From IMG/VR virus record IMGVR_UViG_2529293078_000013: a DNA stretch of 39,465 nucleotides. The stretch is one strand, 5' to 3'. Positions 1 to 20,590 of this stretch are shown here, piece after piece. Position numbers and translations under genes: made by a program. The DNA comes from a virus. Its lineage: Duplodnaviria; Heunggongvirae; Uroviricota; Caudoviricetes. Within the stretch, counting starts at the first letter, position 1. Every line of letters begins with the position of its first letter. The notes under the pieces are model-generated. The model searched no databases. It saw only the letters and a list, made by a program, of their open reading frames with translations, and was not told the DNA's origin.

Positions 1-95
1 GGCACCGACAGCCAAACCGGTATCCTCAAGGGTCATCCTGAAAGGTTCTGTGTTGTGAGATGCGCGTGAGATGCGCAGAATATAGCGCGGCGATT

Positions 96-165
96 TTTTT
101 GATACCGATTTGCATTTCATTTGATACCGCTGAAAAACGCCGATACGCAACTTATTTGATACTAA
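96..165. repeat. Right-end (attR) cluster of three putative transposase-binding repeats, closely spaced
   Basis: TTTGATACC at 98-106 and 120-128, TTTGATACT at 155-163; GAAAAACGC element at 132-140 recalls the CGAAAAACGC of Mu end sites. Confidence 0.6.
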
Positions 166-208
166 ATCGGCGCTTTTCTTTTGAGTTTTAGAATGAGTTT
201 TTAAGCGC

Positions 209-946
209 TCATTCACTCTCTTTCAAACCAGTTTTAACTGTTTGTGGTTTTGGGTAAGGCTGGACTTTGAATAGCTTTGTGTTGAGGCGTTTTCTGGCCC
301 TCTTGTTCAGAAACCGGATGTAACGAAACTGTCGGAACTTATGAACACTGGCTCTGTCAATATTAGCCCTCAGATGTTCACCTCGTTGTCCGCCTCGTTT
401 AATGGCATTCCTGCAAATCTCGTGATACCACTCGCCATCAAGTTCATAGAATATTGATTCATGGCTGCCTACATAATCAAAATTGCTTGCCTGATACACG
501 ACACCAAGACAGCCACAACGCTCATCTGCAAACGACTGAACCCACTGTACCTGCGGATAAAGCTGCCTGATTAGCTTGAGCGCGTAACTGATTGCCCTTG
601 ATTCGGAGTTTCTCGGCATACAGTCATGCAGCCATAGCCGGTTAAGCTCCATATATTCTCGGTTCTGCGTACCCGTTACGACGCGTGCACCACTGTTTGG
701 GTTAAGGGCGTAACCCCATTGCATTACGCCAACAAGTTCCCGTTCTGAAAATATGCCCAGATGAAGGTAGGAGTTATTTACGAAACGGTGGCTGTAATGT
801 TTATTGACGATGACCAGTCTGGCCAGCCAGCAACTTATTGTCTCAACCCGCAACTCACGGGAGCCATAACCAACGATATTGTCGTTATAGCGAATAAGTT
901 CAGGCGTGCTGATGATTCGGGATGTGACTTGCTTTCTGTTCCCCAC
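209..946 (-). CDS. mom: Mom-like DNA modification protein, called from synteny (last gene before right end, overlapped by com)
   Basis: 245-aa ORF whose start overlaps the 3' end of the com ORF by 47 nt; rightmost gene, downstream of gin. Identity rests on position, not on recognised motifs. Confidence 0.55.
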
Positions 947-1100
947 GACAGGATTTCCTTGTGTATGTGGGGTGCTCTGTGGCGCTCGGAGATGTGATTT
1001 GATTGAGGGTTTTACAGCGCGGACATTTTACTTCCAGATAACTGAAACTGGCCCGTGCCAGTAGCTTATTGCAGTGTCGGCACCGTATGTTTCGATACAT
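900..1100 (-). CDS. com: Com-like zinc-finger translational activator of mom (the six-frame ORF extends to 1145; start at internal Met 1100 preferred)
   Basis: Motif [10 protein letters not shown]...VKCPRCK matches the Mu Com CxxC...CxxC zinc finger as I recall it; overlaps mom start. Confidence 0.75.
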
Positions 1101-1145
1101 GACCGCATAACCTCCTGCTTTGTTGTTGATGCCTTTCTCATGCAA

Positions 1146-1290
1146 TCGATCGACAAAAACGATCGATTCGATTTGTTTAATTGATACAACAAATAGATTG
1201 AAAAGTCATCAACAATGATTCAGGGAGGTGATTATTTACTTAAAGAAAACGAAGAGTTAGGTGGTGAAAACGATCATAAAATGATCATTT
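1146..1290. promoter_or_regulatory. com-mom upstream regulatory region with a cluster of Dam GATC sites
   Basis: Four GATC sites at 1148-1151, 1161-1164, 1272-1275 and 1283-1286, in palindromic contexts (ATCGATCGA; TGATCATAAAATGATCA); AT-rich. Confidence 0.4.
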
Positions 1291-1679
1291 TATTGACTTT
1301 TTATACAGTGAAGGTAGGATCACGCGTATATGTAGTATGTTTCAAATCAACAGGATACTACATAAAAGTGAAACCCAGCATAGCTGGAACTATGCTGGGT
1401 CAATCTGTAAAAACTTGCATCAATGCTTTACTTCGAGCTCGTGGCGTATCCTATGATATTCCCCGGTCTCCTGTAAAGCAGAGATGCATAAAAAGGAGAT
1501 CTTTATCATGGATGAAAGAGCCTGTTTGCCCTGCCTGTAAGACTCCCTTACAGCTCATCTATCGCCGTTCTCGATCTCAAAATGGCAAGACATACAAACC
1601 CAAAAATGCTTCCTGTTTCAGGATGCTGATATGTCCTGCCTGTTCTCCCAGGAGGGAAAATACACAAAACGTGCATTAA
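1215..1679 (+). CDS. Hypothetical plus-strand protein; C-terminal 55 aa form a two-CPAC zinc ribbon. Likely real start at 1512 (AGGAGA at 1494-1499)
   Basis: Only ORF in a 570-bp stretch lacking minus-strand ORFs; C-terminus CPACK...(x25)...C...CPAC; stop lies 10 nt before the bidirectional hairpin at 1689-1708. The N-terminal 100 aa are doubtful. Confidence 0.35.
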   Translation: MIQGGDYLLKENEELGGENDHKMIILLTFYTVKVGSRVYVVCFKSTGYYIKVKPSIAGTMLGQSVKTCINALLRARGVSYDIPRSPVKQRCIKRRSLSWMKEPVCPACKTPLQLIYRRSRSQNGKTYKPKNASCFRMLICPACSPRRENTQNVH

Positions 1680-1688
1680 CAAACTCAC

Positions 1689-1708
1689 CCGGCAGGGAAA
1701 CCTGCCGG
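1689..1708. terminator. Perfect 8-bp stem / GAAA-loop hairpin between convergent genes (putative bidirectional terminator)
   Basis: CCGGCAGG-GAAA-CCTGCCGG; sits between the stop of the plus ORF (1679) and the stop of the minus 81-aa gene (1718). Confidence 0.5.
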
Positions 1709-1717
1709 TCGGTATTG

Positions 1718-1963
1718 TTACATCATAGTACCGTCAGTTCCGGGCTGAACCGGCTCTGGTTGCTCTACGGGTTGAGGATCATTTTCCGTGCTGTTTTCAG
1801 CCGGAGAACGGCCAACCATTCGGGCCAGCACTTCATCAACATATGCGTCGATTTGTGCCTCAAAATCCTTGCGAACCTGCGCCTTCAGCACGCGGTTCAC
1901 TTCTTCAGAATAAAGTGCCTGTTTGACAAGCTCTTCAGTAACCGTGCCTTTAATCTCTGGCAT
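1718..1963 (-). CDS. Hypothetical 81-aa protein, helical N-terminus with acidic Pro/Glu/Gln-rich tail
   Basis: Protein-like composition; AAGGAGA Shine-Dalgarno 7 nt upstream of ATG; second gene of a two-gene minus-strand operon. Confidence 0.6.
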   Translation of the reverse strand: MPEIKGTVTEELVKQALYSEEVNRVLKAQVRKDFEAQIDAYVDEVLARMVGRSPAENSTENDPQPVEQPEPVQPGTDGTMM

Positions 1964-1998
1964 GAATATTCTCCTTTTGCAGGTATATTGCCCCGTTA

Positions 1999-2181
1999 TC
2001 AGAGCGGGGTCGGGTCGTTTGGGGATGACGGTGCCTGTGCTGTTTTACTGAGTTTTTCAGCTGCCGCATCATCAATTTTACGGCGAATATAATTTCTGAT
2101 GACCTTATAACCACCGCTCACCAGATATAACGCACTGACCACAGCGCAGAAATAAAGCAGCATTGTATGAACGAATGTCAT
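1999..2181 (-). CDS. Hypothetical 60-aa small membrane protein (one predicted TM helix followed by a basic segment)
   Basis: Hydrophobic stretch LLYFCAVVSALYLVSGG then RNYIRRK; immediately upstream of the 81-aa gene. Confidence 0.5.
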   Translation of the reverse strand: MTFVHTMLLYFCAVVSALYLVSGGYKVIRNYIRRKIDDAAAEKLSKTAQAPSSPNDPTPL

Positions 2182-2294
2182 ATAACCTTACCTTTGATAT
2201 TGACTACATAATTCGTTATCGGGTAAAAACATCGAAGCGACTGATAACCACTCCTTCGGGAGTATTTTTATTTTCCTTTATGGGTTAGGTAGCT

Positions 2295-2329
2295 CCCGCC
2301 AGCCATATCATGACCGGCGGGATTTTTTT
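2295..2329 (+). terminator. GC-stem hairpin followed by T7 run; intrinsic-terminator-like, oriented for plus-strand transcripts
   Basis: CCCGCC...GGCGGG stem (2295-2300 / 2316-2321) followed by TTTTTTT (2323-2329); abuts the stop of the 682-aa gene. Confidence 0.35.
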
Positions 2330-4376
2330 ATTCTGTTACCGCTTTTTTCACTTCCACCACAATGCTGTCAATCAGCACCGGGTAAGTTGCATTTTTTGTG
2401 ATATCCGTTACGCGGAGTTTGTCCACCGGGAAAGTTCCTACTGGTGACTGCGTCAGGGTAAACGCGGCACCATCCTGACCATCAATAACCGGAATAACCT
2501 GAAGGCTGTTATTTCCTGCAAAACGGAAGGCCAGCGTATGCCATTCATTATCAAATGCACCAAAGGTTCCCAGTTTCTGGTTATTTGTTGCCACTTTTGC
2601 ATTGTGGTACATCACATTCAGGTCTTTTGCGTCTGTCTGGATGTAGAACGATGCCAGCAGATTATTCCCTGCATCCCCTGTCAGGGTGACACCCTGCGGC
2701 AGAGAGGAAACCGGCCAGTAAAGCCCCATGACATACTGGTTTGCCACCAGGTCGCCAGGTACTTTAAAACGACAACTGATTAAACCACCATTTTTCAGCA
2801 GTTCAGCACCAGTACCGGCATCATGATCCAGATACCAAGATGATTTACCTGTTTCCTTGGTCAGTTTCATTGCCTTACCACCTGTGCCTCCTGCATCACT
2901 GATAATTTCAGCTTTACCGCCAGCCGGCTCCCAGCCCTGGGCTTTCAGATTTCCTTCTGACTCACTGACACGATAAGACAGCAGTGTTGTGGTTACTGCT
3001 TCAGTTTCTGAAGGTGACGGCACTGGTGCTTCAGTTTCAGAAGATGGAACATCGGCTTTTACTGTGGTTCGCCCCGCATGAGTCAGAACTGCCGTGGCCA
3101 GACGGTCGGAAATAATCCCACGACGTGCCCATGAACTGAAATGGCTGGCCCGGTCCGCAGATGTCCAGGTGGCGGCACTGTTACGCCACGTTGAGCCGTA
3201 ATAACCAATGGATTCAATATCCGGGTCTTCTGCCGGATTGTTGGTGGGTACATTCGCGTCATTTTCATCTGTCATTAATGGAACGAAATGAATGTTTTTA
3301 TCTGTTTTGTTTTTGTAGCCGCCATAGATTGCCTGGTATGCCGGTTCATTTTTCTGTTTCCAGAAATACGTGGTATCGCCACAAATCCACGGAACGCCAG
3401 CAGCACTGCCACCGGTACACTGTTCCGCCTGTTCAGCCAGGTCTGCGCGGAATTTTTCCACCATCGCCAGAAACAGCGCGGAATGCTCCGTCGGCTTCGC
3501 ATCAATATCAAACTCGCCCTGCATCCACACCACAGCAAGCAGGCGGTTTTTCGGGTTCTTCGCCAGTGCCGCTTTTGTCCGGCTGATTAAGTCCTTATAC
3601 AGCGGCTTATCCACACCCCAGCGGGCTGAGTCCTCTGAAGCACCCGTGCTGTCACTGTACGTGCCGTCAGCACCCGCCGTGAATGCAGAACCACCACGGC
3701 AGCAGGGAACCAGCAGAATCCCCGCATCTGCCGGAATAAACGGCAGCAGTTTTTTGGCAATGTGAAGCCCCTGACCCACGGTGCCATATTGCCCTTTAGC
3801 CACATCCGCTTTCGGGTGATTTTTTCCACTCATATCCTGCACATCATGCAGACAGTGGTCGGCCAGAATGATGTCGTTATACTGACAGGCTTTACCTCCC
3901 GGCGTGACTGTACTGCGACGGGCTAACTGCATAATACGCGGTTCGGGGCGGTCATATGTCTCCGGCAGTGGCAGACCTTCACCGTAAGCCATACCGTTTG
4001 ACTGACCAGCAAGAACCACCACGTAATACCAGGAAGGGGAGCTGGAAGCAGTTTCATTTCCTGACGGACGGGTATGTGTTTCAGCATTATCCCAGTCTGA
4101 CGGTTCAGCAGTACCGGCAACATCAGCACTTAACGGAATGACCGCACCAATACCCGCTCCGGTAATTTCCACACTCGGATCACCGGATACTGGCCTTACC
4201 CACAGGCAATCCCGTGTATTAAAACTGATGAGACAGTCAGCAAATGTCATTCCTCCTTTTGTTTCGGCCGGAGGAAAGGGAGCCTCAAGAAATGCCGCTG
4301 TACCACCGGAAACTTTAACGGTAAAGTTTCCGGGCATTGATGATAGTTGAACCCATTTGGACGTCATAATATTCAT
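2328..4376 (-). CDS. nanS-p: Prophage NanS-p-like sialate O-acetylesterase (SASA/SGNH-type) with C-terminal lectin-like domain; cargo gene
   Basis: Central region (LAGQSNGMAYGEGLPLPE, VPCCRGGSAFTAG, WMQGEFD, RRGIISDR) closely matches E. coli NanS/YjhS as I recall it; a Pro/Thr/Glu linker and a C-terminal domain follow. Confidence 0.8.
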   Translation of the reverse strand: MNIMTSKWVQLSSMPGNFTVKVSGGTAAFLEAPFPPAETKGGMTFADCLISFNTRDCLWVRPVSGDPSVEITGAGIGAVIPLSADVAGTAEPSDWDNAETHTRPSGNETASSSPSWYYVVVLAGQSNGMAYGEGLPLPETYDRPEPRIMQLARRSTVTPGGKACQYNDIILADHCLHDVQDMSGKNHPKADVAKGQYGTVGQGLHIAKKLLPFIPADAGILLVPCCRGGSAFTAGADGTYSDSTGASEDSARWGVDKPLYKDLISRTKAALAKNPKNRLLAVVWMQGEFDIDAKPTEHSALFLAMVEKFRADLAEQAEQCTGGSAAGVPWICGDTTYFWKQKNEPAYQAIYGGYKNKTDKNIHFVPLMTDENDANVPTNNPAEDPDIESIGYYGSTWRNSAATWTSADRASHFSSWARRGIISDRLATAVLTHAGRTTVKADVPSSETEAPVPSPSETEAVTTTLLSYRVSESEGNLKAQGWEPAGGKAEIISDAGGTGGKAMKLTKETGKSSWYLDHDAGTGAELLKNGGLISCRFKVPGDLVANQYVMGLYWPVSSLPQGVTLTGDAGNNLLASFYIQTDAKDLNVMYHNAKVATNNQKLGTFGAFDNEWHTLAFRFAGNNSLQVIPVIDGQDGAAFTLTQSPVGTFPVDKLRVTDITKNATYPVLIDSIVVEVKKAVTE

Positions 4377-4466
4377 CCTGTTCCTGAATAAACAGAATTA
4401 TCATATCCACAGACCGATAAACGCCATTTTGCGTTAATTCAGTAAAGGCCCAACAAAGGGAGCGTC

Positions 4467-5027
4467 TTATTTTTCCGAAACGCTCGCAGGATAATAACGA
4501 TAAAGGGTTGAAAGGCCGATATCAAAAATAAGTGCCACCTGTCTTCGACTGACACCCCCGGCCAGTAAACGCCCGACCTGCTCGTATTGTTCCTGCGTGA
4601 GACGACGGGGTCTGCCGCCGGTTCGTCCCCTTTCACGGGCAGCTGCAAGACCAGCCCGTGTCCGTTCGACAATTAATTCACGCTCCATTTCTGCCAGCGC
4701 ACCCATTATGTGAAAAAAGAAGCGCCCCATGGGGGTTGACGTATCAATGTTGTCAGTAAGACTACGAAAATTTATCCCCTGTTGCTGTAATTCATCTGTC
4801 AGCGCAACAAGGTGGCGCATACTGCGCCCCAGCCTGTCCAGTTTCCAGACCATCAGTGTGTCACCGGGTTTTAGTTTCTTCAGTGCCCGCTTCAGTCCCG
4901 GCCGCTGTGTCGTTTTACCACTCATTTTGTCTTCAAAAATCTGCTCACATCCTGCACATTCCAGCGCATTTCTTTGTAAACCGGTGTTCTGGTCATTTGT
5001 TGATACGCGTATATAGCCAATCAGCAT
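4467..5027 (-). CDS. gin: Serine recombinase / DNA invertase (Gin/Hin/Pin/Cin family)
   Basis: MLIGYIRVSTNDQNTGLQRNALECAGCEQIFEDK... is near-identical in pattern to Mu Gin; adjacent to the invertible segment. Confidence 0.9.
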   Translation of the reverse strand: MLIGYIRVSTNDQNTGLQRNALECAGCEQIFEDKMSGKTTQRPGLKRALKKLKPGDTLMVWKLDRLGRSMRHLVALTDELQQQGINFRSLTDNIDTSTPMGRFFFHIMGALAEMERELIVERTRAGLAAARERGRTGGRPRRLTQEQYEQVGRLLAGGVSRRQVALIFDIGLSTLYRYYPASVSEK

Positions 5028-5081
5028 GTATTTACCTTCCTTAAAAAGAGGTGGAAAGGCCTTTTAAAGCAGATATACGGC

Positions 5082-5107
5082 ATCCCTGAAACCTCGGTTT
5101 ACGGGAT
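5082..5107. other. gix-like recombination site, gin-proximal boundary of the invertible segment
   Basis: AAACCTCGGTTTACGGGA matches the centre of the Mu gix site; 13-bp core TCGGTTTACGGGA recurs inverted at 6458-6470. Confidence 0.65.
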
Positions 5108-5452
5108 ACTGTAAACAGGGCCGCGAATGCCCTGCCATCGAACGGAACGGCTGTTGCAGCGAATAAACTCGCCACTCCAAGAAATATTAATGGTGTCCCA
5201 TTTGACGGAACGCAGGATATAAATATTACATCGGGGATGACGCAGTCTGTGGCTGACTCACGTTATGTTCAAAGCATTCGAAGAGGTTCAAGGTCAACGA
5301 TTGGAATGCAATATAATATTTTTGAAGTTCCTGACGGATGCGTACTTACAGGGCTTGATGTCGCTGGTGATGGTAATGCAACGGTAACCGCATATTATCG
5401 ACCTGTTCAGTTTCTGATAGATGGTTCGTGGAAAACAGCTTCCAGCGCATAA
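5090..5452 (+). CDS. Sv': promoterless alternative tail-fibre C-terminal segment (no start codon; expressed only after inversion, fused to the constant part of S)
   Basis: Frame open from the TGA at 5087-5089; encodes NLGLRDTVNRAANALPSNGTAVAANKLATPRNINGVPFDGTQDINITSGMTQS..., colinear with S residues about 175-230, then diverges; ends YYRPVQFLIDGSWKTASSA versus S YYRPVQIYINNAWRTVSSV. Confidence 0.7.
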   Translation, partial: NLGLRDTVNRAANALPSNGTAVAANKLATPRNINGVPFDGTQDINITSGMTQSVADSRYVQSIRRGSRSTIGMQYNIFEVPDGCVLTGLDVAGDGNATVTAYYRPVQFLIDGSWKTASSA

Positions 5453-5531
5453 AAGTGCAGTAGTTCAAAAAACAGATTATCTGAATAAATATATGATGAT
5501 TTTGTCTTTTCAACAAAAACAAGGTGAAATA

Positions 5532-6053
5532 ATGGAGCTTATTAACGTAAAACGATATTACCCGGAACACAAACCCTATGGTGAGGATGTTCAGTATTTC
5601 CAGAGTGAGGACGGAAGGGATTTTTATGAATCTATCCCGCTTTTCACAAAGAAATACAAACTCTGTATTTCGCCTGTAACGGGTATTATCTGCTCTGTTG
5701 CTGAAGATGTCTCTGCTTTATATCCGGCAGGTTTTACTGTTGTTGAAGTGGACGAACTGCCGGAAGGTGTGAATATTGACGGTAACTGGCAGTGTTCTGA
5801 TGGCCTGATATCAAAGGTGCCGGTAAACTGGAAGACGGTTGCTGAAAAGCGTCGCTCATCGCTGCTCCAGGAAGCCAACGAAACCGTGGATGACTGGAAA
5901 ACAGAATTAAAACTGGACATGATTAGCGATGAAAATAAATTACAGCTGACGCGCTGGATGGCGTATATCCGACAGCTTAAAGAAATGCACTTTAATGATA
6001 TTGCCAGTGAGGGGCATTACCAGGCGATTCCCTGGCCGGAAAAACCGGAATAA
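5532..6053 (+). CDS. Tail fibre assembly protein (Tfa/U'-like), partner of Sv'
   Basis: MELINVKRYYPEHKPYGEDVQYF... is a typical Tfa N-terminus; AAGGTGA RBS before ATG at 5532; lies inside the invertible segment. Confidence 0.8.
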   Translation: MELINVKRYYPEHKPYGEDVQYFQSEDGRDFYESIPLFTKKYKLCISPVTGIICSVAEDVSALYPAGFTVVEVDELPEGVNIDGNWQCSDGLISKVPVNWKTVAEKRRSSLLQEANETVDDWKTELKLDMISDENKLQLTRWMAYIRQLKEMHFNDIASEGHYQAIPWPEKPE

Positions 6054-6087
6054 TTCAGAGGGTGCATTCAGCACCCTTTTCTGTGGT

Positions 6088-6999
6088 TTACACTGAACTT
6101 ACCGTTCTCCAGGCATTATTAATATAAATCTGAACCGGGCGATAATAGACCCCACCGATATTGTCCGCAGACCGGGAGCCGGTTTCCTGCACGTTAATAC
6201 CGGAAAGCATACAACCGGAAGGTGCGCTGTAATTCCATGATATTTCATTGCCTCCGGGTGAATGATAGCTCTGTGCTCCAAGCTGAACATTCTGTACATA
6301 CCGGCCATCTGCGGTTGACTGCGTCATTCCTGACGTGATGTTGATATCCTGCGTTCCGTCAAAAGGAACGCCATTAATATTTCTTGGGGTGGCGAGTCTG
6401 TTTGCTGCCACGGCGGTTCCACCCGATGGCAGGGCATCAGCAGCCTTATTTACCGTTTCCCGTAAACCGACGTTATCGATAAAAGCGCCTTTATCCGGAA
6501 TGTCTGCGCCGTTCTGCTCCCTGCGCAGGTAACGGTTATCACCTTCGCTTTTGCTGTAAACATCCAGATTATTACGGGCGGTTCCCGCATTCTCCAGGTC
6601 GGCAAGGTTCTGATCCTTCGCCAGAGCATTAACGTCACCGGGACCAAGACTGTTTTTTGTGGCAAGCGCCCCAAGACCAAGATAACCACGGGCAAGACGC
6701 TGGGCTTCCGCACCGGCATCAGCAATTTCTTTCAGGTTGTTTTTCCGGGAAAAGGCATTCGCAGCGATAATGGCTTTAATGGACAGCGTAAGCTGGTTTA
6801 ACTGCGCCTTATCCGGCTGAATACTGGCTTCAGCCAGAATATTCAGCAGTTCGGCCTGGAGAATATTCAGCCAGTCCTGACCAATCCAGCTGATACCTTT
6901 TTGTCCGTCACCTTCGGTAAACCAGGTGGTGGTATTACTCTGCGCCGGTGCCAGCGCAGGCATATTCGCCACGCCGGAATTATTATCAACATGAAACAT
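6088..6999 (-). CDS. Tail fibre protein S (constant N-terminal part outside, variable C-terminal part inside the invertible segment)
   Basis: 303 aa; the gix site falls at codons IDNVGLR (about residue 175); the C-terminal tip is paralogous to Sv'. Confidence 0.85.
   Translation of the reverse strand: MFHVDNNSGVANMPALAPAQSNTTTWFTEGDGQKGISWIGQDWLNILQAELLNILAEASIQPDKAQLNQLTLSIKAIIAANAFSRKNNLKEIADAGAEAQRLARGYLGLGALATKNSLGPGDVNALAKDQNLADLENAGTARNNLDVYSKSEGDNRYLRREQNGADIPDKGAFIDNVGLRETVNKAADALPSGGTAVAANRLATPRNINGVPFDGTQDINITSGMTQSTADGRYVQNVQLGAQSYHSPGGNEISWNYSAPSGCMLSGINVQETGSRSADNIGGVYYRPVQIYINNAWRTVSSV
6457..6482. other. gix-like recombination site inside S (S-proximal boundary of the invertible segment)
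   Basis: TCCCGTAAACCGA at 6458-6470 is the inverted copy of the 5094-5106 core. Confidence 0.65.
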
Positions 7000-7559
7000 T
7001 AAATAGTCTCCTCTTCATGGCTGTTTGCATACACGTAAATAAACGTCTGCCATGCAGGCTTATAACGGTTCAGAATACATTCCAGCGCACCGCCTTCATA
7101 AATACGCAGCGGCGTGAGAATATCATCCAGCACATTCATATTCCGGTAGCCGGTTTCACTGTTAATCGTGACAATACTGACCCACTGTGAATCCGGTGAT
7201 GGCTGAATATCTATTTCATAACCAAACTCTGCCGCAAACCGGATATAAAATTCACGGTTAAGAGAGGGTTTCATCCGGTATTTATTCCCGGCATAACGCT
7301 GACGCTCCTGAATTGTTGCGCCGGTCATATCACATTCCGGTAACCCCAGATAACGCTCCCAGTCTTCCAGCAGCAGACGGGATGAATCAGGAAAACGTTC
7401 TGCCAGCATCTGGTTACCGGTCCAGGAAACACGCTCCGTGGAATGACTGAGGCCCAGGCACAAAGCCGCAAGAACGGATGACGGCCGCTTATCCCATGCC
7501 AGCCCGTCAGGCAGCAACTGCAACAGGGCACGCTGATGCGGGGTCAGGGTTACAGCCAT
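6999..7559 (-). CDS. Baseplate/tail protein (Mu gp48-position)
   Basis: 186-aa ORF immediately upstream of S, translationally coupled to its neighbours. Confidence 0.6.
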   Translation of the reverse strand: MAVTLTPHQRALLQLLPDGLAWDKRPSSVLAALCLGLSHSTERVSWTGNQMLAERFPDSSRLLLEDWERYLGLPECDMTGATIQERQRYAGNKYRMKPSLNREFYIRFAAEFGYEIDIQPSPDSQWVSIVTINSETGYRNMNVLDDILTPLRIYEGGALECILNRYKPAWQTFIYVYANSHEEETI

Positions 7560-8635
7560 GTGATTTCCCCCACGGTCAGCAACTCTGTATCTCCGGCCAT
7601 CACGGACTTCAGCGGGCTGCGAACTTCAAAATCCTCCAGTCCTTTCACCCCTGCAACAGCCCGCCAGAATGATGAAGGCAATACAAGTCCACCCGGCCGC
7701 GATTCGTTATAAAGCAGGTCCGTTAATGCCTGTTTTACGGCAGCCTGATTTTCCGGCGTTTTGGGTACAATCCTGATCTCAAACGCCACCGGCTTATTGG
7801 TCAGCTTAAACACGCTGATTGTCGGCCCAAGTGGCTGACCAACGGGCTGGCCCGTCGCCGGATCATCATGACTGCGGATATAATCCGCCACCCGCTTCAC
7901 ATCACCTTCTCCGGGGAAAATGTCAGGGTTATTATCCTGAACAAAAGTCACACCAACACTACCCGCCTCAGGCCATTCAGGCTTACACCATGCCCGCGTC
8001 ACGCCCGGTACTTCCCGTGCCCAGCGTTCAAAATCATACTGTGTTCCCCCTGATGGCGGGTTCTGTACCCGGAATACCAGCCTGGACAGCAACTCCGGCA
8101 CCGTTTCCACATCCGCACCACCGGTGAGTCCCGTGCCGGTGACCGTGGCTGTCTGGTTGATGCCCGCCTGTGGCGTGATAAAGGACAGGCGGGTTCCGGT
8201 CGGGGTATTTCCAGCGCGCCCCGCACTTTCCGCCTCCACATTAACATTCAGTGTTCCGGCTTTTCCGGTCGCAGAGCCGGTGATGCGGTACACAACACCA
8301 TCGCTTCGCTGAAGGAGTACGCCTTCCGTGATCCCTGCATCCGTGGTCAGCATCAGTTGTACCGGTCCGTCAGCGCGGGAAGCCGGTTTACGGATGACAC
8401 CCCAGAATGCGCAGTGTTTCAGGAGTTCGGCTTCATCAGCTTCTGTCGGAATTATCTGCCGGGAGATCCAGGCCAGATGTTCATGCTCCTGTGCTGACAG
8501 ACCCGCCAGTGCATACGCAATGGCATTCAGGGTGGTTTCATTCACGCCCGGCTGCGAACCGGGCAGGCGCTGGCTGATATCCTGTTGTGTCTGTGTGATC
8601 AGTTGCGCCAGTGGTAAGGGCTGATAAGGCATCAT
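7550..8635 (-). CDS. Baseplate J-like wedge protein (Mu gp47-like)
   Basis: 361 aa; size and position within the baseplate block. Confidence 0.7.
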   Translation of the reverse strand: MMPYQPLPLAQLITQTQQDISQRLPGSQPGVNETTLNAIAYALAGLSAQEHEHLAWISRQIIPTEADEAELLKHCAFWGVIRKPASRADGPVQLMLTTDAGITEGVLLQRSDGVVYRITGSATGKAGTLNVNVEAESAGRAGNTPTGTRLSFITPQAGINQTATVTGTGLTGGADVETVPELLSRLVFRVQNPPSGGTQYDFERWAREVPGVTRAWCKPEWPEAGSVGVTFVQDNNPDIFPGEGDVKRVADYIRSHDDPATGQPVGQPLGPTISVFKLTNKPVAFEIRIVPKTPENQAAVKQALTDLLYNESRPGGLVLPSSFWRAVAGVKGLEDFEVRSPLKSVMAGDTELLTVGEITWL

Positions 8636-9069
8636 TCCCCCTTCATATCAGCATAAAAAATCATCGGATGTCTGCTTCCGTCCGGCAGGGTGATTTTCAC
8701 GGAAAGCGAAAGGCGAGCATGCCCCACACGCATGGCATGACATACCACGGATGTGGCAGCACCGCTTTTATGCAGCCACGCCAGCGCTTCATCAGCATAG
8801 GCCTGTGCACGGCTGACCACGGAGGACAGCGTCTTTTCACGGCTTAACAGCCAGAGACGGGAGCCAACGGGGCGCTCCCGGAAACTGTCTCCCCACCATC
8901 CCCGACGGTCACGGGTGCCGTCAGGGATTTCATCGGAATCCAGCGCCCGCCTGTCCGTAAACAGTGAAATAATGACCGCAGTCAGCAGGCTGTTATCCGT
9001 CAGAAGATCTGCGCCGTTCAGTTGCAGGGAACCGCAACCCTGATCCCAGACGACAGCAATATCAGCCAT
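8632..9069 (-). CDS. Baseplate protein (Mu gp46-like); start taken at internal Met 9069
   Basis: MADIAVVWDQG... begins at the Met that abuts the stop of the upstream gene (9062); the longer N-terminal extension of the six-frame ORF overlaps that gene in another frame. Confidence 0.65.
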   Translation of the reverse strand: MADIAVVWDQGCGSLQLNGADLLTDNSLLTAVIISLFTDRRALDSDEIPDGTRDRRGWWGDSFRERPVGSRLWLLSREKTLSSVVSRAQAYADEALAWLHKSGAATSVVCHAMRVGHARLSLSVKITLPDGSRHPMIFYADMKGE

Positions 9070-9676
9070 TCTCTGGTCCTCCCGTTTTGCTGCCTTCACC
9101 GTTATCGTGATGCACATGACCTGAATAGGTGATCCCGGCAATAACCGCTTCGGACATCGTGAACGTCCCCTGTGATCTTCCGGTGCCGTCAATGGACACA
9201 TTGCCTTTGACATGCAGGTTCTTATCCACTGTGACATTACCGGTAAAGTGAGCCTCCGGTGTATCCACCTGAACACCTTCATCGGCGTAAATCTCCAGCG
9301 TCTTACAGGTCACAATGATCCGGCCGTTCTTTGTCAGACGTATACGGTGCCCCTCATGGTGATACACGCCGGTATCTCCGGCGGTAAGTCCGGTCGGGCG
9401 ACTGCGGCGGTCTTCCACCACAAGCACCACGGCCTGATCCCGTTGTCCGCCAGCACAGGCCAGAAAAACTTCCGCACCAGGCAGGGGGACGCTGATTTGC
9501 CCGTACTGCTGGGGGCGTTCAACGTCATCAAAGGTTTCACCATCCATACCGGTGATTTGCACATTCTGGATTTTCAGCGTGTCCGTTGTGCCGGTCAGTA
9601 CACCACGCCCGAACAGCAGACGAACACCCCGCATCACGGGGGCCAGAAGGCGGCTGATGACTTCGTCATTCATCAT
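9062..9676 (-). CDS. Baseplate spike/assembly protein V-like (Mu gp45-like)
   Basis: 204 aa; position and composition typical of gpV-type spike proteins. Confidence 0.65.
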   Translation of the reverse strand: MMNDEVISRLLAPVMRGVRLLFGRGVLTGTTDTLKIQNVQITGMDGETFDDVERPQQYGQISVPLPGAEVFLACAGGQRDQAVVLVVEDRRSRPTGLTAGDTGVYHHEGHRIRLTKNGRIIVTCKTLEIYADEGVQVDTPEAHFTGNVTVDKNLHVKGNVSIDGTGRSQGTFTMSEAVIAGITYSGHVHHDNGEGSKTGGPENG

Positions 9677-10790
9677 TGAATTTAATCCCCTGTTTTTTCA
9701 TCTGTGCCCGCACGAAGGCGTCCACGTCACCCGCATTTCCGCTTCCGCTGTTTCCCGGCTCTGCCGGAACAATAAAGCCGTCACGGGGTGCCAGAATCAG
9801 ACGGGTGGTTTCGCCGTGATTTGCATCCAGCGAAAACTCCACCTGACAGACAAGAAGATCACGCTCTTCCACTCCGGTGCGGGGAGCCGTGACAGCCGTC
9901 AGCAGGTTGATATCCCACAACTGGCCGTTCTCCCGAAACCAGTGCCGCACGGTGGCTGTCAGGCGCACAGAGCGGGCAACCGCCCGGCGCATTTCCCGGA
10001 CAGCCCTCTGGCGTGCACCGTCTGCATCAACAGCATGATCCGCCAGCACAATTTTCGGTCTGTAACGGTGGATGGCACTGTCTGTCACCGTACCAACGGG
10101 TGCGGCCAGCGTTCCGGCTGTCAGTGCATCCCCGGCATGACCACCACCACGCCCGTGCCCCCGTACACGGTATTCACTGTGGCGCAGACGGTGATCCACG
10201 TTGTGATCCAAATCCAGCAGATTTTCGCCCAGCGTCAGCGTGTCGCCACGCTGACTGCCGGCCTGAGTGAAAACCAGTTCACCGGCGGCATTACTGGTTA
10301 CCAGGACGCCTCTGTGTCTCGCGGCCCGTGTCAGCGCATCTGCCACGGTTTCTGAGTTTTCCAGTGTGAAGGTGGAAAAGGGCCGGGCTGCCGTTGCATC
10401 ATTTACCTGCCAGCGCACCGTGACCCCGAACGGAGCACACAAATCTGAAGCAATGTGCTCCAGCGTGCGGTTCCTCCACTGGCTGCCCGGATGAATGGCT
10501 GAACAGTCCACCAGGTCACCGGTTTTATCCCGTCCGCTGAGCGTGATCTGAAAACGCGTGGCGCTGATGCGCTGCCGGACCTGATCCAGCCAGCCAGTGA
10601 TCACAGGCTGACCGTCAATGCGCAATTCCAGAGACTGACCGGCACGGACGGATGACGGAAGGCGTACACCGGGCATCATTACCCCCAGTTCAAAGGAGCC
10701 CGCCAGATGTTCAAGAGAGCGACGAACACTCACCGTCAGCCAGCCGGAAAAAATCTCACCGCCCAGATACAGTTCAACCCTGCTGCTCAC
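9666..10790 (-). CDS. Baseplate hub protein (Mu P / gpD-like)
   Basis: 374 aa, downstream of the tape measure and N-like genes. Confidence 0.7.
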   Translation of the reverse strand: MSSRVELYLGGEIFSGWLTVSVRRSLEHLAGSFELGVMMPGVRLPSSVRAGQSLELRIDGQPVITGWLDQVRQRISATRFQITLSGRDKTGDLVDCSAIHPGSQWRNRTLEHIASDLCAPFGVTVRWQVNDATAARPFSTFTLENSETVADALTRAARHRGVLVTSNAAGELVFTQAGSQRGDTLTLGENLLDLDHNVDHRLRHSEYRVRGHGRGGGHAGDALTAGTLAAPVGTVTDSAIHRYRPKIVLADHAVDADGARQRAVREMRRAVARSVRLTATVRHWFRENGQLWDINLLTAVTAPRTGVEERDLLVCQVEFSLDANHGETTRLILAPRDGFIVPAEPGNSGSGNAGDVDAFVRAQMKKQGIKFNDE

Positions 10791-12144
10791 TAATCACCTC
10801 CACTGAATGGCCTCCGGGAATGAACAGCGGATCAACAATACCGTTACGGCGCACAAAACGTTGCCAGCCGGTACTGTTCCCGGTGGCACGGTACAGGGTC
10901 ACCAGTGCAGGCTCGGTGGTACGTACAGTCACTACTGTTGCACCGGGTAGCTGAACTCCCCGTGTATTCAGATCCTCTGTCAGTGCCAGTCTGGCATCAC
11001 GAAGCGTCAGCGCCGTGGCGGTATACCCCTGCCCGGACAGTGTCATCACCTGCCGTTCGAGCGCTTCGCTTAAGTCACGGTTAATGCGCTGAAGATCAAC
11101 TGAACTTTCCAGCCAGACAGGCCAGGTACGGTGGGCTGCGTCACTGTCCGGCAGGGTTTCCTGACTGAGAACCTGATCCAGCAGTTTTCCCACGGTCTGT
11201 GCCTGGGCCACCACGGCAGCACTCTGCATTACCGCCCGTATCAGACGAATATTCTTTTGTGCTGCCGGTGTCAGACCGATGAGAGTCTGCGGATTATCCT
11301 GCTCATCCAGCACGTAACGCAGGGAAGATAATGTCCTGTACAGTTGCGGCATTCCCTGAGAGAAGGCGGATGTCGTCCGGCCGATACTGCCACCGGGCCG
11401 GGTATTCAGGCCTCCTGAAGACAGTGACGGCAGCGATGGCAGGGTGATCAGGGCACTGAAAAGCCCCGCAAAAGATGAGGCCATGCGGGAAGGTGCTGTC
11501 AGTAATGCCGTGGCATTCCCTTTCAGCGCCGTGAACGTGGCAGTAAAGGCACTGATATCCTGTACAATCCCCATGCCGGAAACGGCATTTTCCAGGGCGG
11601 ACACCTTATCGCTGATGGTTTCGGTCATTGCCTGGACATCGTGCATTCCGTCAGAAATCACCGTCCAGCCCGCTTCCAGGGTTTCAAAAACCTTCCCGAG
11701 CGCGGTGGTACTCTTCTGCTCCAGAATGGCGGCCGTGTCCTGTGTGACAGCAGGTGCGGTATCATCACTTACCGGCGTGACATTAATGGTGAACTCAACC
11801 ACGCCCTGTTCAGCAGCGTTATAACGACTTTCAAAGCTGTTTATCAGCACATTTAACGTGCCGTAATCCGGGTGAAGCAGCTCCCCGGCACCGGGAGCAC
11901 GAAGGGCATCACGCAGACGATTTCGCTGTGTCTGAACATCATCCCCCATCACAAGTACACTGAACGTAAATTCAGCCAGTTTAGGTCCCAGATCGTCTGC
12001 ACCACCGGTTTCCCGTAACGGATATTCCCGACGGACAATGTTTCGCCCGCCACGTTCGCGCTGCTCACGCCAGACGAGGAACGGCACACCACGGAACGCA
12101 CCACGACCGTCACCAGAGGCCATAATTCCCTCCGTTCCAGACAT
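10774..12144 (-). CDS. Mu N-like DNA circularisation / tail protein
   Basis: 456 aa, immediately after the tape measure gene as in Mu. Confidence 0.65.
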   Translation of the reverse strand: MSGTEGIMASGDGRGAFRGVPFLVWREQRERGGRNIVRREYPLRETGGADDLGPKLAEFTFSVLVMGDDVQTQRNRLRDALRAPGAGELLHPDYGTLNVLINSFESRYNAAEQGVVEFTINVTPVSDDTAPAVTQDTAAILEQKSTTALGKVFETLEAGWTVISDGMHDVQAMTETISDKVSALENAVSGMGIVQDISAFTATFTALKGNATALLTAPSRMASSFAGLFSALITLPSLPSLSSGGLNTRPGGSIGRTTSAFSQGMPQLYRTLSSLRYVLDEQDNPQTLIGLTPAAQKNIRLIRAVMQSAAVVAQAQTVGKLLDQVLSQETLPDSDAAHRTWPVWLESSVDLQRINRDLSEALERQVMTLSGQGYTATALTLRDARLALTEDLNTRGVQLPGATVVTVRTTEPALVTLYRATGNSTGWQRFVRRNGIVDPLFIPGGHSVEVISEQQG

Positions 12145-14185
12145 TCACATCCAGTCCGTGACCGGACGTGTCATCAATATCAATACTGCGAGCCTGCCAC
12201 CCTTCCGGGGCAACCAGCTCCACACGGGCAGAGGCTTTTTGTACCGCCTGTCCACTGCTTTCATCATCACTGCCCCGTAATTTCTGCCAGGCTTCAGTCA
12301 GCCATCCCCCCAGATAGTTACCGAGATAGCTGCCCACCGTAGAACCAATGGCAATCCCCACAGGTCCGGCTGCCGCCCCCAGCGCACCACCGGCAATACT
12401 GCCTGCAAGAGAGCCGACCGCTTCTCCCTTGTCTGTGGCACTGGCGCTGCCATCCAGCAGAACCGGGGCTGCCATCGCGCCAGCCCACAGGGCACCGCCA
12501 CCCAGCCGGCCGGCCAGTCCACCGGCACTGCGGAAAAAGCCGGAGAAACGCCCCAGCCCCATGCGGCTACCGACAGACGAAAGTAACCCACCGGCGCGCC
12601 CCATCATGCGCCCCCAGAACCCTGCCCCACCAGAAGAGGGAGACGGTGGCACTGGGGACGGTGGCAGGGGAGGCGTGACCGGTCTTCCGCGCCCCGGTCC
12701 GCGTTTCCTGCGGCCCCGCCCCTGACGTCCGCCTGAGGAAGTATCGGTCGCGCCGGTGCCGGACAGTCCTCCTGTGGGCCAGTTTGTTACAAGTACTGGC
12801 TGAACGGCTGCCGGATTTACCCCGGTAAGAAAGTTTATAAAACGTTGCCCTCGTCCCTGAGATGTGCCTGGTGGTGTTCCGGCCGGAGGAGAGCGCCGGA
12901 AAGGTGAAGTCAGGAAGGCCGCCGCTGATAATCCGTATCCCAGCAATGCAGCACCCGGACGTATAATCCCCGTTCCGACAGCCCGCGCCATTTTCAGGGC
13001 ACGGGTGGCGAGATACATGTACAGCAGGTATTTCGCGGCGGTCTGTGCCCCCTGACCAATGCGATCCAGCGCATCACCATAGCCCGCATCCCGCAGAGCC
13101 TGAAGCGTGTCGCGTACCTTTCTGATCGCCTGATAAAACCCTGTCACTGCATCACGGGCATACTCAAAGCCCTGGTTCATGGCTGATGCCGTGCTTTCCG
13201 CCAGGGAATGGTAACTGCCATCAGATTTGGCACTGTCAACCCATGAAAGAAATCCCCTGAGATTACCCTTCAGTTTTTCAAATGGCCCACTGTCCATCAC
13301 ATCCCGGGCAAACTGATCCCAGACGTCACCCATCATGGCCGTCAGGCCACTCCAGGAATTCATTGCGTCCTTTTGTGCTCCCCTGGCCTGTTCCGCCAGC
13401 GTCTGAAATAACAGGCGAATACTGTCCGGCCCAAGCAGCCCTTTTTCACCAAGTTTTCTGACCACTTTCTGGTCCACACCCAGACGATCAGCCAGCACGC
13501 GGTAGGCATTAATGCCGTAGGTGGCAAGAATATTTGCATCCGCCGCCTGAATACTGCCTCTTGCATACATCTGTTTCAGTTGCAGGGATGCCCCCTGTGC
13601 ATCGGACAGTGACCAGCCGCCCACGGCACCCTGATCCTGAAGCATGGTGACAAAATTTCGGGCCTCCCTGTCACTCATACCAAAGCCCAGACTGGACGTA
13701 TATTCCTGCATGACGCCAGCCAGCCCCCAGGTGGTTTCCTTCGCATTCTGTATTGCCCACCTGCGGACATCATCAGTTTTCGCCCGATCCCCTTTGTAAA
13801 GGGAGTTCAGGCGAATCATATAGGTTTCCATCTCCGCTGCCGGGCGAATAAATCCCCGGTTAAAGCCATATACAGCAGCACCACCGGCCAGCATTCCGTA
13901 AAGATTGCTGATCCGCCCGATGGTGCCGGTAATACTGCCCTGAAGACGGTCAAAATCAGAAGTGACATGGCGGATACTGCCCCGCACCCCGGCCAGCGTG
14001 CGCTGCATCCTGCTTCCGAGTACATCTGTTTCCTGCCCGGCACGGCGGGCAGCATTTCCCAGGCCACCCAGCCCCGCCTGGCCGGAGCGTGAGAATGCCC
14101 CCAGCTCCTGTGACCACTGGCGGGATTTGGCTGAGATATTGCCGAGCAAATCAACTATCAGAGATGCTCTGAGATTTCGGGCCAT
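12110..14185 (-). CDS. Tail tape measure protein
   Basis: 691 aa, helical Ala/Gly-rich with a Gly/Pro/Arg low-complexity segment; located between the chaperone and baseplate genes. Confidence 0.75.
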   Translation of the reverse strand: MARNLRASLIVDLLGNISAKSRQWSQELGAFSRSGQAGLGGLGNAARRAGQETDVLGSRMQRTLAGVRGSIRHVTSDFDRLQGSITGTIGRISNLYGMLAGGAAVYGFNRGFIRPAAEMETYMIRLNSLYKGDRAKTDDVRRWAIQNAKETTWGLAGVMQEYTSSLGFGMSDREARNFVTMLQDQGAVGGWSLSDAQGASLQLKQMYARGSIQAADANILATYGINAYRVLADRLGVDQKVVRKLGEKGLLGPDSIRLLFQTLAEQARGAQKDAMNSWSGLTAMMGDVWDQFARDVMDSGPFEKLKGNLRGFLSWVDSAKSDGSYHSLAESTASAMNQGFEYARDAVTGFYQAIRKVRDTLQALRDAGYGDALDRIGQGAQTAAKYLLYMYLATRALKMARAVGTGIIRPGAALLGYGLSAAAFLTSPFRRSPPAGTPPGTSQGRGQRFINFLTGVNPAAVQPVLVTNWPTGGLSGTGATDTSSGGRQGRGRRKRGPGRGRPVTPPLPPSPVPPSPSSGGAGFWGRMMGRAGGLLSSVGSRMGLGRFSGFFRSAGGLAGRLGGGALWAGAMAAPVLLDGSASATDKGEAVGSLAGSIAGGALGAAAGPVGIAIGSTVGSYLGNYLGGWLTEAWQKLRGSDDESSGQAVQKASARVELVAPEGWQARSIDIDDTSGHGLDVNVWNGGNYGLW

Positions 14186-14187
14186 AC

Positions 14188-14370
14188 TTACTGCTTCGTT
14201 CTGATGATTTTTTCTGTCTGTCGGCAGTGCCGGTAAAGTTGCGACAGGGGGAGGTTAAGCGCCCATTCCGGACCGCTTTTTGTCACCATCCCCAGGATAA
14301 TTGCCGCTTCTTCAATCTGATCCCGACACTGCGCCTGATCGCCCCCGGTCAGCTGCCAGCTTTCCGGCAA
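14188..14370 (-). CDS. Downstream overlapping ORF of the tail assembly chaperone (possible frameshift extension)
   Basis: 60-aa ORF overlapping the 3' end of 14312-14806 by 59 nt in a different frame; classic position of G/GT-type frameshifting. Confidence 0.35.
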   Translation of the reverse strand: MPESWQLTGGDQAQCRDQIEEAAIILGMVTKSGPEWALNLPLSQLYRHCRQTEKIIRTKQ

Positions 14371-14806
14371 GCGCGGTATCCAGCAGGCTGACCGCTGCCA
14401 TCAGGCGGGAGAGATCGCGCTCGCTTAACTGTCCAATCTGACGGGGTGACAACGGACCTTCAATGTCTCCCACTGCGGCAATCTGACGGCGCAGCAGTGC
14501 AACACCGCGTAACGACGGAGACGCTATCAGCATCGGGCCATTGTTTGTCTCCACCACGCGCTCGGCTTCTGCTTCTGCGTCAATACTGTCTTTCGCTGTC
14601 AGTTCCCGGAACGTGACACGATATTCACGGGTCTCACCAAACGGCAGACCATCAAGCAGATCCACATATCCCTTTGCCAGTTGCTCTGTCAGCCCGGCAG
14701 TGCGTGGATCAGCCCCCTCAAGTGCTTCCCGGATTGCCTCCATCACGGCTGCCTCGGAAACTGCCGTTTTTTTCTTACGTGTGGTCATTTTATTTTTCCT
14801 GATCAC
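14312..14806 (-). CDS. Tail assembly chaperone (Mu gp41-position)
   Basis: Acidic 164-aa protein between the tail tube and tape measure genes. Confidence 0.6.
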   Translation of the reverse strand: MIRKNKMTTRKKKTAVSEAAVMEAIREALEGADPRTAGLTEQLAKGYVDLLDGLPFGETREYRVTFRELTAKDSIDAEAEAERVVETNNGPMLIASPSLRGVALLRRQIAAVGDIEGPLSPRQIGQLSERDLSRLMAAVSLLDTALAGKLAADRGRSGAVSGSD

Positions 14807-15168
14807 TGAACACGGGTACTGGAGGCGCTGGCGAACTTCACGGAGATCTCCCCGCCACCGTCAAGCGAGGCCGGTTCACTGCTCCAGGCCTTCGTCATCA
14901 TGTGGACTTCGCCGGTATCCGCCACAAACTCGATAGTGACCGCAGTCCAGTTGTTGATTTCATCGGCGGCTGGTGAACCTTCTCCGCCTGCCGGAAATTT
15001 GCAGTCCAGCGTCGCTTCACGTGGTTTCTGGCGGTAACCATAGACTTTTGCGCCTTTCACCACTTCACGTTCAAAACCAGACGGAGAAAATGTAGCCCCC
15101 TCAAGCGTCTCGTATTCCTGACCGTTCACACGGATAGTGGCCGTACCCTGATACTGTTTTCCGCTCAT
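14803..15168 (-). CDS. Tail tube protein
   Basis: 121 aa, directly downstream of the sheath gene. Confidence 0.7.
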   Translation of the reverse strand: MSGKQYQGTATIRVNGQEYETLEGATFSPSGFEREVVKGAKVYGYRQKPREATLDCKFPAGGEGSPAADEINNWTAVTIEFVADTGEVHMMTKAWSSEPASLDGGGEISVKFASASSTRVQ

Positions 15169-15176
15169 GCCTTACC

Positions 15177-16679: not shown

Positions 16680-16921
16680 TGCGGTTTCTCCTTATCGGAT
16701 GCCGGTTGGGCGACCGGTTTTTCTGTCGCAGTCGTTGCATCCGCAGATACAGCCGGAGCCTCTTCAGCGGCTTTTTCAGCCTGAATGACATCGCCGTCAT
16801 CAAGACGCCGACACCAGAACGGCGTAAAGGGCTTTTCCTCCCCCTCCTGTGCCAGCGGGCGCATTGTGTCGGGATCACGAATCAGGCGTCCCGGCGCGGG
16901 TTTGATAAAGATGGTTTTCAT
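16676..16921 (-). CDS. Hypothetical head-tail region protein (Mu gp38-position)
   Basis: 81-aa ORF with acidic Ala/Pro-rich tail, coupled to the sheath gene. Confidence 0.5.
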   Translation of the reverse strand: MKTIFIKPAPGRLIRDPDTMRPLAQEGEEKPFTPFWCRRLDDGDVIQAEKAAEEAPAVSADATTATEKPVAQPASDKEKPQ

Positions 16922-18299: not shown

Positions 18300-18342
18300 A
18301 TTTGCCCTCCGCAGGGGCCGGGCCGTAAGCCCGGCTCACCGT

Positions 18343-20414: not shown

Positions 20415-20590
20415 TCCGGCAGCATAAGCCGGGAATTTTCAGGGCGGGTTTTGCGGGATTTCAGGAAGTGCTTCCAGGGGAAAAATACAAAGGCGCTTCA
20501 CGCAGATTTTAAAGCCCGTTAAATACAGGTTAGAAAATCACGACACGCGCCTGAAGGGGGTAAGGTAATGCATTTGCATACCTTAAACAA

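Follow-up and report, generated by a model that had tools for sequence, protein, structure and literature searches.

NanS-p esterases are thought to help Escherichia coli strains that produce Shiga toxin (STEC) to draw nutrition from O-acetylated sialic acids present in the mucus of the gut, and the genes encoding them are known from lambdoid phages. The stretch of DNA analyzed here (IMG/VR virus record IMGVR_UViG_2529293078_000013, 39,465 nucleotides, hereafter the window) holds such a gene in a transposable Mu-like prophage, which raises the question of what the enzyme does there and how it is fitted to an unrelated type of phage. The gene (2328..4376, minus strand) is an intact open reading frame (ORF) of 682 uninterrupted codons located between gin and com/mom, and the identity of its product as a NanS-p-type esterase is secure. 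The catalytic and C-terminal parts of the protein closely resemble those of lambdoid NanS-p, whereas the N-terminal DUF1737 domain of the latter is missing, its place being taken by an unrelated domain that is predicted to be all-beta.

Domain architecture of the Mu-type esterase

The protein comprises 682 residues, or 679 if translation starts at the second ATG (4367), as in RefSeq. The identical 679-residue protein is present on at least 999 public contigs, where its name is given as 'sialate O-acetylesterase' or as 'DUF6645 domain-containing protein'. There is ample knowledge of the enzyme family, of its activity and of the lambdoid gene, and automated annotation has already given the protein a name.

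Three domains separated by two linkers can be delineated, all encoded on the minus strand. The central SASA/SGNH catalytic domain (residues 113−431; 3084..4040) matches the Pfam family SASA (PF03629; residues 119−315, E-value = 6.6e−12), and residues 107−431 align to E. coli NanS/YjhS (PDB 3PT5, E-value = 1.9e−118). The C-terminal domain, a lectin-like jelly-roll (residues 462−677; 2346..2993), matches DUF6645 (PF20350; residues 527−645, E-value = 2.4e−69) and aligns over its whole length to the C-terminal domain of NanS-p (PDB 6YP6, E-value = 1e−111). PHROG 143, the phage NanS-p family, covers residues 65−680. The first ~110 residues have no Pfam match. They include the N-terminal domain (N-domain; residues ~5−85; 4122..4364), defined by AlphaFold2 modelling, conservation and hhalign comparisons, and linker 1 (residues 86−112; 4041..4121), which is rich in Ser, Thr and Pro, ends in ASSSPS, is poorly conserved and has low values of the predicted local distance difference test (pLDDT). 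A preliminary description of the gene, made from the sequence alone, had proposed a NanS-like SASA esterase in the center, a lectin-like domain at the C-terminus and an unrelated domain at the N-terminus. The matches to SASA and 3PT5 and those to DUF6645 and 6YP6 bear out the first two parts of this proposal, and the N-domain indeed neither matches any Pfam family nor aligns with a DUF1737 N-terminus. A full-length AlphaFold model, computed from an alignment of 15 sequences, was of poor quality (mean pLDDT of 44) and was set aside.

The same description had made its assignment dependent on the catalytic Ser, His and Asp positions, of which the serine and the histidine were found in place. Ser126 (codon 3999−4001) lies within a GQSN motif at residues 124−127 and His412 (codon 3141−3143) within a RASH motif at residues 409−412; the codons were verified, and both residues are invariant in the 15-sequence alignment. 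They correspond to Ser19 and His301 of NanS. In active NanS-p alleles, GQSN and RASH have been described as SGNH blocks (PMC10462455). The C-terminal domain likewise retains the four aromatic residues of its proposed sugar site, Y548, Y553, Y578 and F649, which correspond to Y510, Y515, Y540 and F611 of vb_24B_21. A hydrophobic signal-like stretch was looked for at the N-terminus and none was seen. Chromosomal NanS (YjhS, 3PT5) has a homologous catalytic domain (57−60% identity), but, unlike the three-domain prophage protein, it is a single-domain enzyme of ~326 residues encoded in the nanCMS sialic-acid operon.

Linker 2 (residues 432−461; window ~2994−3083) varies in length, since a common 669-residue allele lacks 10 residues of this SETEA-repeat linker, and the polymorphism falls where lambdoid NanS-p reportedly self-cleaves. 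SSP-containing motifs have been proposed as autoprocessing sites in a preprint on phage phi24B (bioRxiv 10.64898/2026.04.10.717836), and the ASSSPS end of linker 1 may, by analogy, be likened to them.

Replacement of the N-terminal domain in the Mu-like prophage

From approximately residue 113 onward the protein is 74% identical to NanS-p of VT2-Sakai; the alignment extends over residues 68−676, leaving residues 1−67 without a counterpart. The SASA domain is 78−80% identical to those of lambdoid NanS-p alleles and has the same GQSN and RASH blocks, and the jelly-roll domain is 78−86% identical, with all four aromatic residues retained. Shared, too, are the three-part layout with flexible linkers and the genes for DUF1378 and DUF826 downstream. 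The differences, apart from the N-terminus itself, concern the carrier, which is a prophage of a transposable Mu-like myovirus rather than a lambdoid phage, and the position of the gene, which follows gin and precedes com/mom, whereas the lambdoid copy lies between stx/Q and the S−R lysis genes.

DUF1737 (PF08410) was not found in the protein by Pfam scan, and the N-terminus of VT2-Sakai NanS-p does not align with the N-domain. The N-domain was also considered as a diverged DUF1737, and this was rejected: profile−profile comparison using hhalign gave a probability of 0.2%, and the folds differ. DUF1737 consists of one helix and three strands (bioRxiv 10.64898/2026.04.10.717836), whereas residues 5−83 of the Mu-type protein are predicted to form an all-beta fold (AlphaFold with a six-sequence alignment, pLDDT of 74−81), followed by the disordered linker 1. 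The preliminary description had called for a structure prediction, and the predicted fold sets the N-domain apart from DUF1737.

A role for DUF1737 has been reported from phi24B. According to a 2026 cryo-electron microscopy preprint, NanS-p of this phage (gp84) is a structural capsid-decoration protein; its DUF1737 domain assembles into hexamers that plug the capsid (T=9) at its central hexons, with cleavage releasing the esterase part at a later stage (bioRxiv 10.64898/2026.04.10.717836). The part exchanged in the Mu-like prophage is exactly the one that anchors gp84.

The different parts of the protein have different closest relatives. Both the SASA and the C-terminal domains are nearer to the lambdoid alleles than to group b, another Mu-type lineage (69−73% and 70−72% identity, respectively), and the N-domain groups with Mu types only. 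In addition, recombinants between the two types were found. One protein (P0068) consists of a DUF1737 N-terminus and a Mu-type-a C-terminal half, and in two loci (L013, 96−5136; L018, 1213−12691) the gin side and a Mu-type N-domain are joined to the lambdoid genes for DUF1378, DUF826, S and R. The arrangement in L018 resembles an inversion. Taken together, mosaicism and recombinants indicate that unrelated prophages swap the enzyme core, each phage type keeping its own front end; nanS paralogues are recombination substrates between Mu-like and lambdoid prophages.

Distribution of the Mu-type sub-family

We examined 80 IMG/VR loci, in which marker calls are limited by the available flank. The N-domain is present in 24 of them, with Mu markers (gp48, gin, mom) wherever flanks allow and with DUF1737 in none. 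DUF1737 is present in 56 of the 80, none of which has a Mu marker, while lambdoid holin/lysozyme or stx genes are found where a flank is available. The same pairing of the N-domain with Mu-like prophages is seen in E. coli type b and in the Salmonella locus L031.

Among 5426 complete E. coli genomes, type a (the lineage of the window) occurs in 205, two copies being located on plasmids and single genomes holding as many as four, and type b in 28, which together amount to ~4%; the sub-family is also present in Shigella and Salmonella. The placement of the gene had been regarded as unusual in the preliminary description. Given these counts, it is not an isolated oddity: the architecture defines a conserved sub-family, seen in every case in Mu-like prophages and already annotated publicly as sialate O-acetylesterase.

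Group b consists of proteins of 681−691 residues from E. coli and Shigella, 66% identical overall and 52−55% identical in the N-domain to the protein of the window. Their genes are found in the order Gp48, fiber, fiber assembly, gin, esterase, DUF1378, DUF826 and C5 methylase, the latter in place of com/mom. Group c is represented by a Salmonella enterica protein of 770−784 residues (L031, P0131, P0153) with an N-domain that is 37% identical; its gene directly follows the fiber and fiber-assembly genes of a Mu-like prophage, without gin, DUF1378 or DUF826. Replacement of com/mom by a C5 cytosine methyltransferase was observed in both groups (L004, 11792−12844, type-b E. coli; L031, 13791−14843, type-c Salmonella). 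In the GenBank phage collection no isolated phage with the N-domain was found, save for two Stx-phage records containing an inserted Mu-like prophage.

Selection on, and homologs of, the N-terminal domain

The N-domain is no junk extension but a domain under purifying selection, as indicated by the low proportion of nonsynonymous differences (pN = 0.25) relative to saturated synonymous ones (pS = 0.78) between lineages a and b, and from a ratio of nonsynonymous to synonymous substitution rates (dN/dS) of 0.17 within lineage b; for all domains of the protein dN/dS is 0.1−0.2. No match to the N-domain profile was found among PDB sequences. When all ORFs of the window, of L004 and of L031 were searched with a hidden Markov model of the N-domain, no paralogue emerged; the domain has, therefore, not been copied from a fiber or baseplate domain of that phage. 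With the N-domain as sole query, word-based and full HMMER searches returned only near-identical fragments and one distant fragment, P0128, and genome and metagenome scans with the latter gave no matches.

More informative were esterases of Salmonella enterica, the cores of which are 91−92% identical to each other and yet bear different N-termini. A Mu-type N-domain is found in a Mu-like prophage (L031), a third, unrelated N-terminus in a P2-like prophage, after the fiber, assembly and invertase genes (L102), a short N-terminus in another myovirus-type prophage (L101), a DUF1737 N-terminus in the esterase P0147, and a distant relative of the Mu-type domain in a lambda-like siphovirus prophage, directly after stf−tfa (P0145, L107). 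In L100, the N-domain homolog is a separate 78-residue ORF, which overlaps the end of the fiber-assembly gene and is separated by 15 nt from the esterase gene downstream.

A family of stand-alone ORFs of 77−82 residues in Salmonella surfaced only with a profile built from distant members of the N-domain family. Comparison of the Mu-type N-domains with these ORFs by hhalign gave a probability of 92.9% (E-value = 3.6e−7, 63 columns), and the N-domain therefore belongs to an uncharacterized family of small beta-modules without a Pfam model. In P2-like prophages the stand-alone ORFs follow the invertase gene and are followed, 6 nt on, by a gene for an ILEI-domain protein. In lambda-like prophages they follow tfa and overlap by 4 nt the gene for a DUF6645-only protein. 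A DUF1353 gene comes next in both settings. Stand-alone ORFs (e.g. P0191 and P0186) thus share the niche of the N-domain, directly after a tail-fiber assembly gene or invertase and with a glycan-binding protein next, but they are separate polypeptides, and their partners are DUF6645-only or ILEI-domain proteins instead of SASA esterases. In every case, fused or separate, the module stands ahead of a protein that binds or modifies glycans, where the tail-fiber gene cluster ends. Among the Salmonella enterica prophages L109−L114, whose stand-alone ORFs have 79−81 residues, a pertussis-like toxin S1 gene is located a few kb downstream in L112−L114.

The carrier prophage

The Mu-like prophage carrying the gene (81..39385) is 99% identical to an annotated E. 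coli O157:H7 prophage. The RefSeq annotation of the latter includes a Mu-type transposase, a MuB-like AAA ATPase, Gam, Mor, the gpT head protein, a Mu-type baseplate (gp44−48), an invertible fiber segment with gin, and com and mom. Judged by this gene content, the carrier is a Mu-like transposable prophage. We assume, without comparing the two sequences, that Sp18, the Mu-like prophage described for O157 Sakai, represents the same type.

The flanks of the prophage (1−80 and 39386−39465) consist of lambdoid phage DNA that matches VT2-Sakai between ant and R (lysozyme) with 100% identity, which places the Mu-like copy inside a lambdoid Stx-type prophage. This host prophage would have its own nanS-p a few kb past the right edge of the window. 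The GenBank Stx-phage records LC727881 and LC727895 also hold an inserted Mu-like phage, at other sites. The target duplication is 4 bp (AGAA, CAGA, GATG) in three independent insertions (window 77−81/39382−39389; L001/L002; L089), as likewise annotated by the depositors of LC727881; in Mu it is 5 bp. The prophage ends are 5′-TATAGCG...GGTTACA-3′, the mom-side end beginning with TA, as opposed to TG in Mu.

The gin−mom locus and its transcription

As noted in the preliminary description, the gene is located between gin and com, where Mu has none. The upstream neighbor, also on the minus strand, as are the genes that follow, encodes a gin-type DNA invertase (4467..5027; Pfam Resolvase and HTH_7, PHROG 125). 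Downstream follow genes for DUF1378 (1999..2181, 60 residues; PF07125, E-value = 1e−38) and DUF826 (1718..1963, 81 residues; PF05696, E-value = 3e−15), com (900..1145; Pfam Zn_ribbon_Com, PHROG) and mom (209..946; Pfam Mom, PHROG), so that the order is gin, esterase gene, DUF1378, DUF826, com, mom. In phage Mu a mere 94 bp separate gin from com, and the locus thus contains ~3.3 kb of extra DNA. Lambdoid Stx phages have their genes arranged as stx, SASA esterase, DUF1378, DUF826, S, R, and the presence of DUF1378 and DUF826 after nanS-p has also been described in the literature (PMC10462455). Thus, nanS-p, DUF1378 and DUF826 constitute a three-gene module common to both types of phages.

The 90-nt spacer between gin and nanS-p is devoid of terminator-like structure (RNA fold z-score of −0.8). 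On the same strand, a terminator-like GC-rich hairpin followed by GUGAGUUUGUU, a weak U-tract, is located 3′ of DUF826 (1678..1708; ΔG = −22.1 kcal/mol, z = −4.7) and is likely the end of the module transcript. Another hairpin (2294..2322, minus strand; 13 bp, ΔG = −23.8 kcal/mol, z = −4.4) lies directly 3′ of the nanS-p stop codon. It has no U-tract and could be an RNA-stabilizing or processing element between the esterase gene and DUF1378.

Two further features of the region were observed. A 154-residue ORF (window 1215−1679, plus strand), annotated as 'hypothetical protein' in RefSeq, lies between DUF826 and com on the opposite strand. It has two CxxC pairs, no Pfam match and a strong 13-bp hairpin inside (1372−1401). 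DNA with 88−92% identity to 1001−1482 is found in L004, a type-b prophage, without such an ORF having been called there; the ORF may be a real gene. On the other side, ~158-bp inverted repeats (5090−5247 and 6317−6474, ~82% identity) flank the genes for the tail-fiber C-terminal part and fiber assembly beside gin, and what they enclose is the prophage's invertible host-range segment. The fiber and fiber-assembly proteins are encoded at 6088−6999 and 5421−6053, respectively.

Possible functions of the Mu-type esterase

Taking the explanation as a whole, we find it somewhat more probable than its alternatives combined that the enzyme is a NanS-p member of a Mu-specific sub-family in which the N-domain serves as a docking or partner module, making the esterase a particle-associated glycan enzyme. 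The SGNH/SASA part would remove 9-O-acetyl groups from sialic acids such as 5-N-acetyl-9-O-acetylneuraminic acid (Neu5,9Ac2) and those of mucin glycans, and the lectin-like jelly-roll module would hold the enzyme on glycans. NanS-p of EDL933 and O104:H4 is active on Neu5,9Ac2 and mucin (reviewed in PMC8065619), and the 74−80% identity to alleles reported active suggests the same substrates, Neu5,9Ac2 and mucin sialoglycans, for the protein of the window. In the sub-family specific to Mu-like prophages, the unrelated ~80-residue beta domain takes the place of the DUF1737 capsid anchor, and the catalytic and lectin parts continue to recombine with lambdoid alleles. The module is probably transcribed by read-through from gin or from the late tail operon and presumably ends at the hairpin after DUF826. 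Since the protein has no export signal, it would reach its substrates at lysis or riding on the phage particle. The N-domain would act as a docking or partner module tied to the tail-fiber gene cluster, and the esterase as a mucus- or glycan-modifying enzyme on the particle that could also feed the lysogen population.

The role of the N-domain is the weakest step of this explanation. A docking role is favored because in gp84 of phi24B the corresponding position is occupied by a virion anchor, because only the N-terminal module tracks the phage type, because homologs of the N-domain are translationally coupled to lectin-like genes inside fiber clusters, and because structural SGNH/SASA esterases are known in Acinetobacter phages. 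A more specific version, in which the N-domain, fused or as a small protein of its own, is a hitherto unrecognized docking module of tail-fiber clusters that mounts SASA esterases, DUF6645 lectins and ILEI-domain proteins on the long-tailed particles of Mu-like, P2-like and lambda-like phages, as DUF1737 does on the capsid of Stx podoviruses, is conceivable, though we would give it rather less than an even chance. If it holds, virions of the O157 Mu-like phages would carry a sialate O-acetylesterase acting on host mucus.

Several considerations weigh against a particle-associated role. The end of the tail-fiber cluster is a classic site for cargo genes ('morons'), so that position alone does not discriminate between the explanations. 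Vertical descent from only about three lineages could account for the strict pairing of the N-domain with phage type. Distant relatives of the N-domain are also found in lambda-like siphovirus prophages, and the module is, accordingly, not bound to one particle architecture; a structural match of the N-domain to a known virion anchor was sought and not found. Sp18 of O157 Sakai is reportedly not inducible by mitomycin, according to the literature. The promoter scan gave fewer sites than shuffled sequence and nothing above chance, and for this reason no promoter is claimed. Finally, what is proposed about function, expression and presence in the virion draws on sequence, structural models and analogy.

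The most serious rival, proposed in the preliminary description, is that the gene is pure cargo for lysogenic conversion, with the esterase freeing O-acetylated sialic acids as a carbon source for the host and the N-domain being a neutral or enzyme-intrinsic add-on, for instance for oligomerization or substrate binding, without any link to the particle. This is plausible, even if we hold it to be distinctly less probable than the docking explanation taken as a whole. The gene is outside the core Mu set, at the prophage end where cargo genes typically sit, and STEC genomes associated with cattle and humans are enriched among its carriers. Mu gin is expressed in lysogens, and, as gin lies upstream without an intervening terminator-like structure, expression of the esterase in the lysogen is possible by analogy with Mu. 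Moreover, enterohemorrhagic E. coli grows on Neu5,9Ac2 and de-O-acetylates mucin glycans with lambdoid NanS-p alleles (PMC8065619). However, in the absence of an export signal such an enzyme would need release by lysis anyway, and the lambdoid homolog is reportedly a structural protein. The cargo explanation also leaves unexplained why only the N-terminal module differs by phage type while the core recombines freely, and why homologs of the N-domain exist as separate ORFs coupled to lectin-like genes in tail-fiber clusters. The replacement of DUF1737 by a domain linked to tail-fiber genes points at least as strongly to a particle-linked role as to cargo.

Alternatively, the protein could be a receptor-modifying tail enzyme that de-O-acetylates a bacterial surface polysaccharide (O-antigen, capsule or colanic acid) and thereby aids adsorption or blocks superinfection. 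Outside Stx phages the gene always follows the tail-fiber and fiber-assembly genes, and de-O-acetylation of lipopolysaccharide has been raised for NanS-p in a review on STEC phages (PMC8065619). Furthermore, Acinetobacter phages carry SGNH/SASA tailspike esterases, one of which was shown to be structural (PMC11126041). These tailspike deacetylases (e.g. Aristophanes gp41) likewise combine an SGNH/SASA esterase with a phage-specific N-terminal part and are encoded with tail or fiber genes. The N-terminal parts, however, have no sequence relationship, and the Acinetobacter enzymes, whose target is the capsule of the host, have been proven to be components of the virion. Its catalytic domain resembles sialate-specific NanS and, even more closely, the NanS-p alleles active on Neu5,9Ac2 (57−60% and 78−80% identity, as given above), no trimeric tailspike-like or fiber-like region is evident in the protein, and nothing in the analysis pointed to a surface glycan of the O157 hosts that is sialylated or O-acetylated in a suitable way. 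This explanation therefore appears unlikely to us.

Finally, the notion of a decaying, non-functional remnant of recombination between lambdoid and Mu-like prophages, which might be entertained because their nanS paralogues do recombine and the present copy itself sits inside a lambdoid prophage, is excluded by the conservation data, namely, an intact 682-codon frame with catalytic residues kept, dN/dS of 0.1−0.2 in all domains, an identical protein on at least 999 contigs and an architecture kept across lineages with only 37−55% identity in the N-domain, and we regard it as highly improbable.

Implications for prophage evolution

In the literature searched, coverage of which was partial, there is no account of the Mu-like sub-family or of nanS-p linked to Mu-like phages or Sp18, nor of the replacement of DUF1737 or of an N-domain family with stand-alone relatives, although an earlier description may exist; the front-end swap thus appears to be undescribed. 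The N-domain defines a new small domain family, for which Pfam has no model. For many O157 strains, the gene represents a further copy of nanS-p (up to four per genome), and it offers homology for recombination between unrelated prophages. More generally, the same enzyme core is found in transposable Mu-like prophages with another front end, and the swap follows the phage type in both E. coli and Salmonella. This would turn a single structural observation, that of the capsid-anchored NanS-p of phi24B, into a testable general rule, according to which temperate phages of enterobacteria may display mucin-modifying enzymes via interchangeable adaptors.

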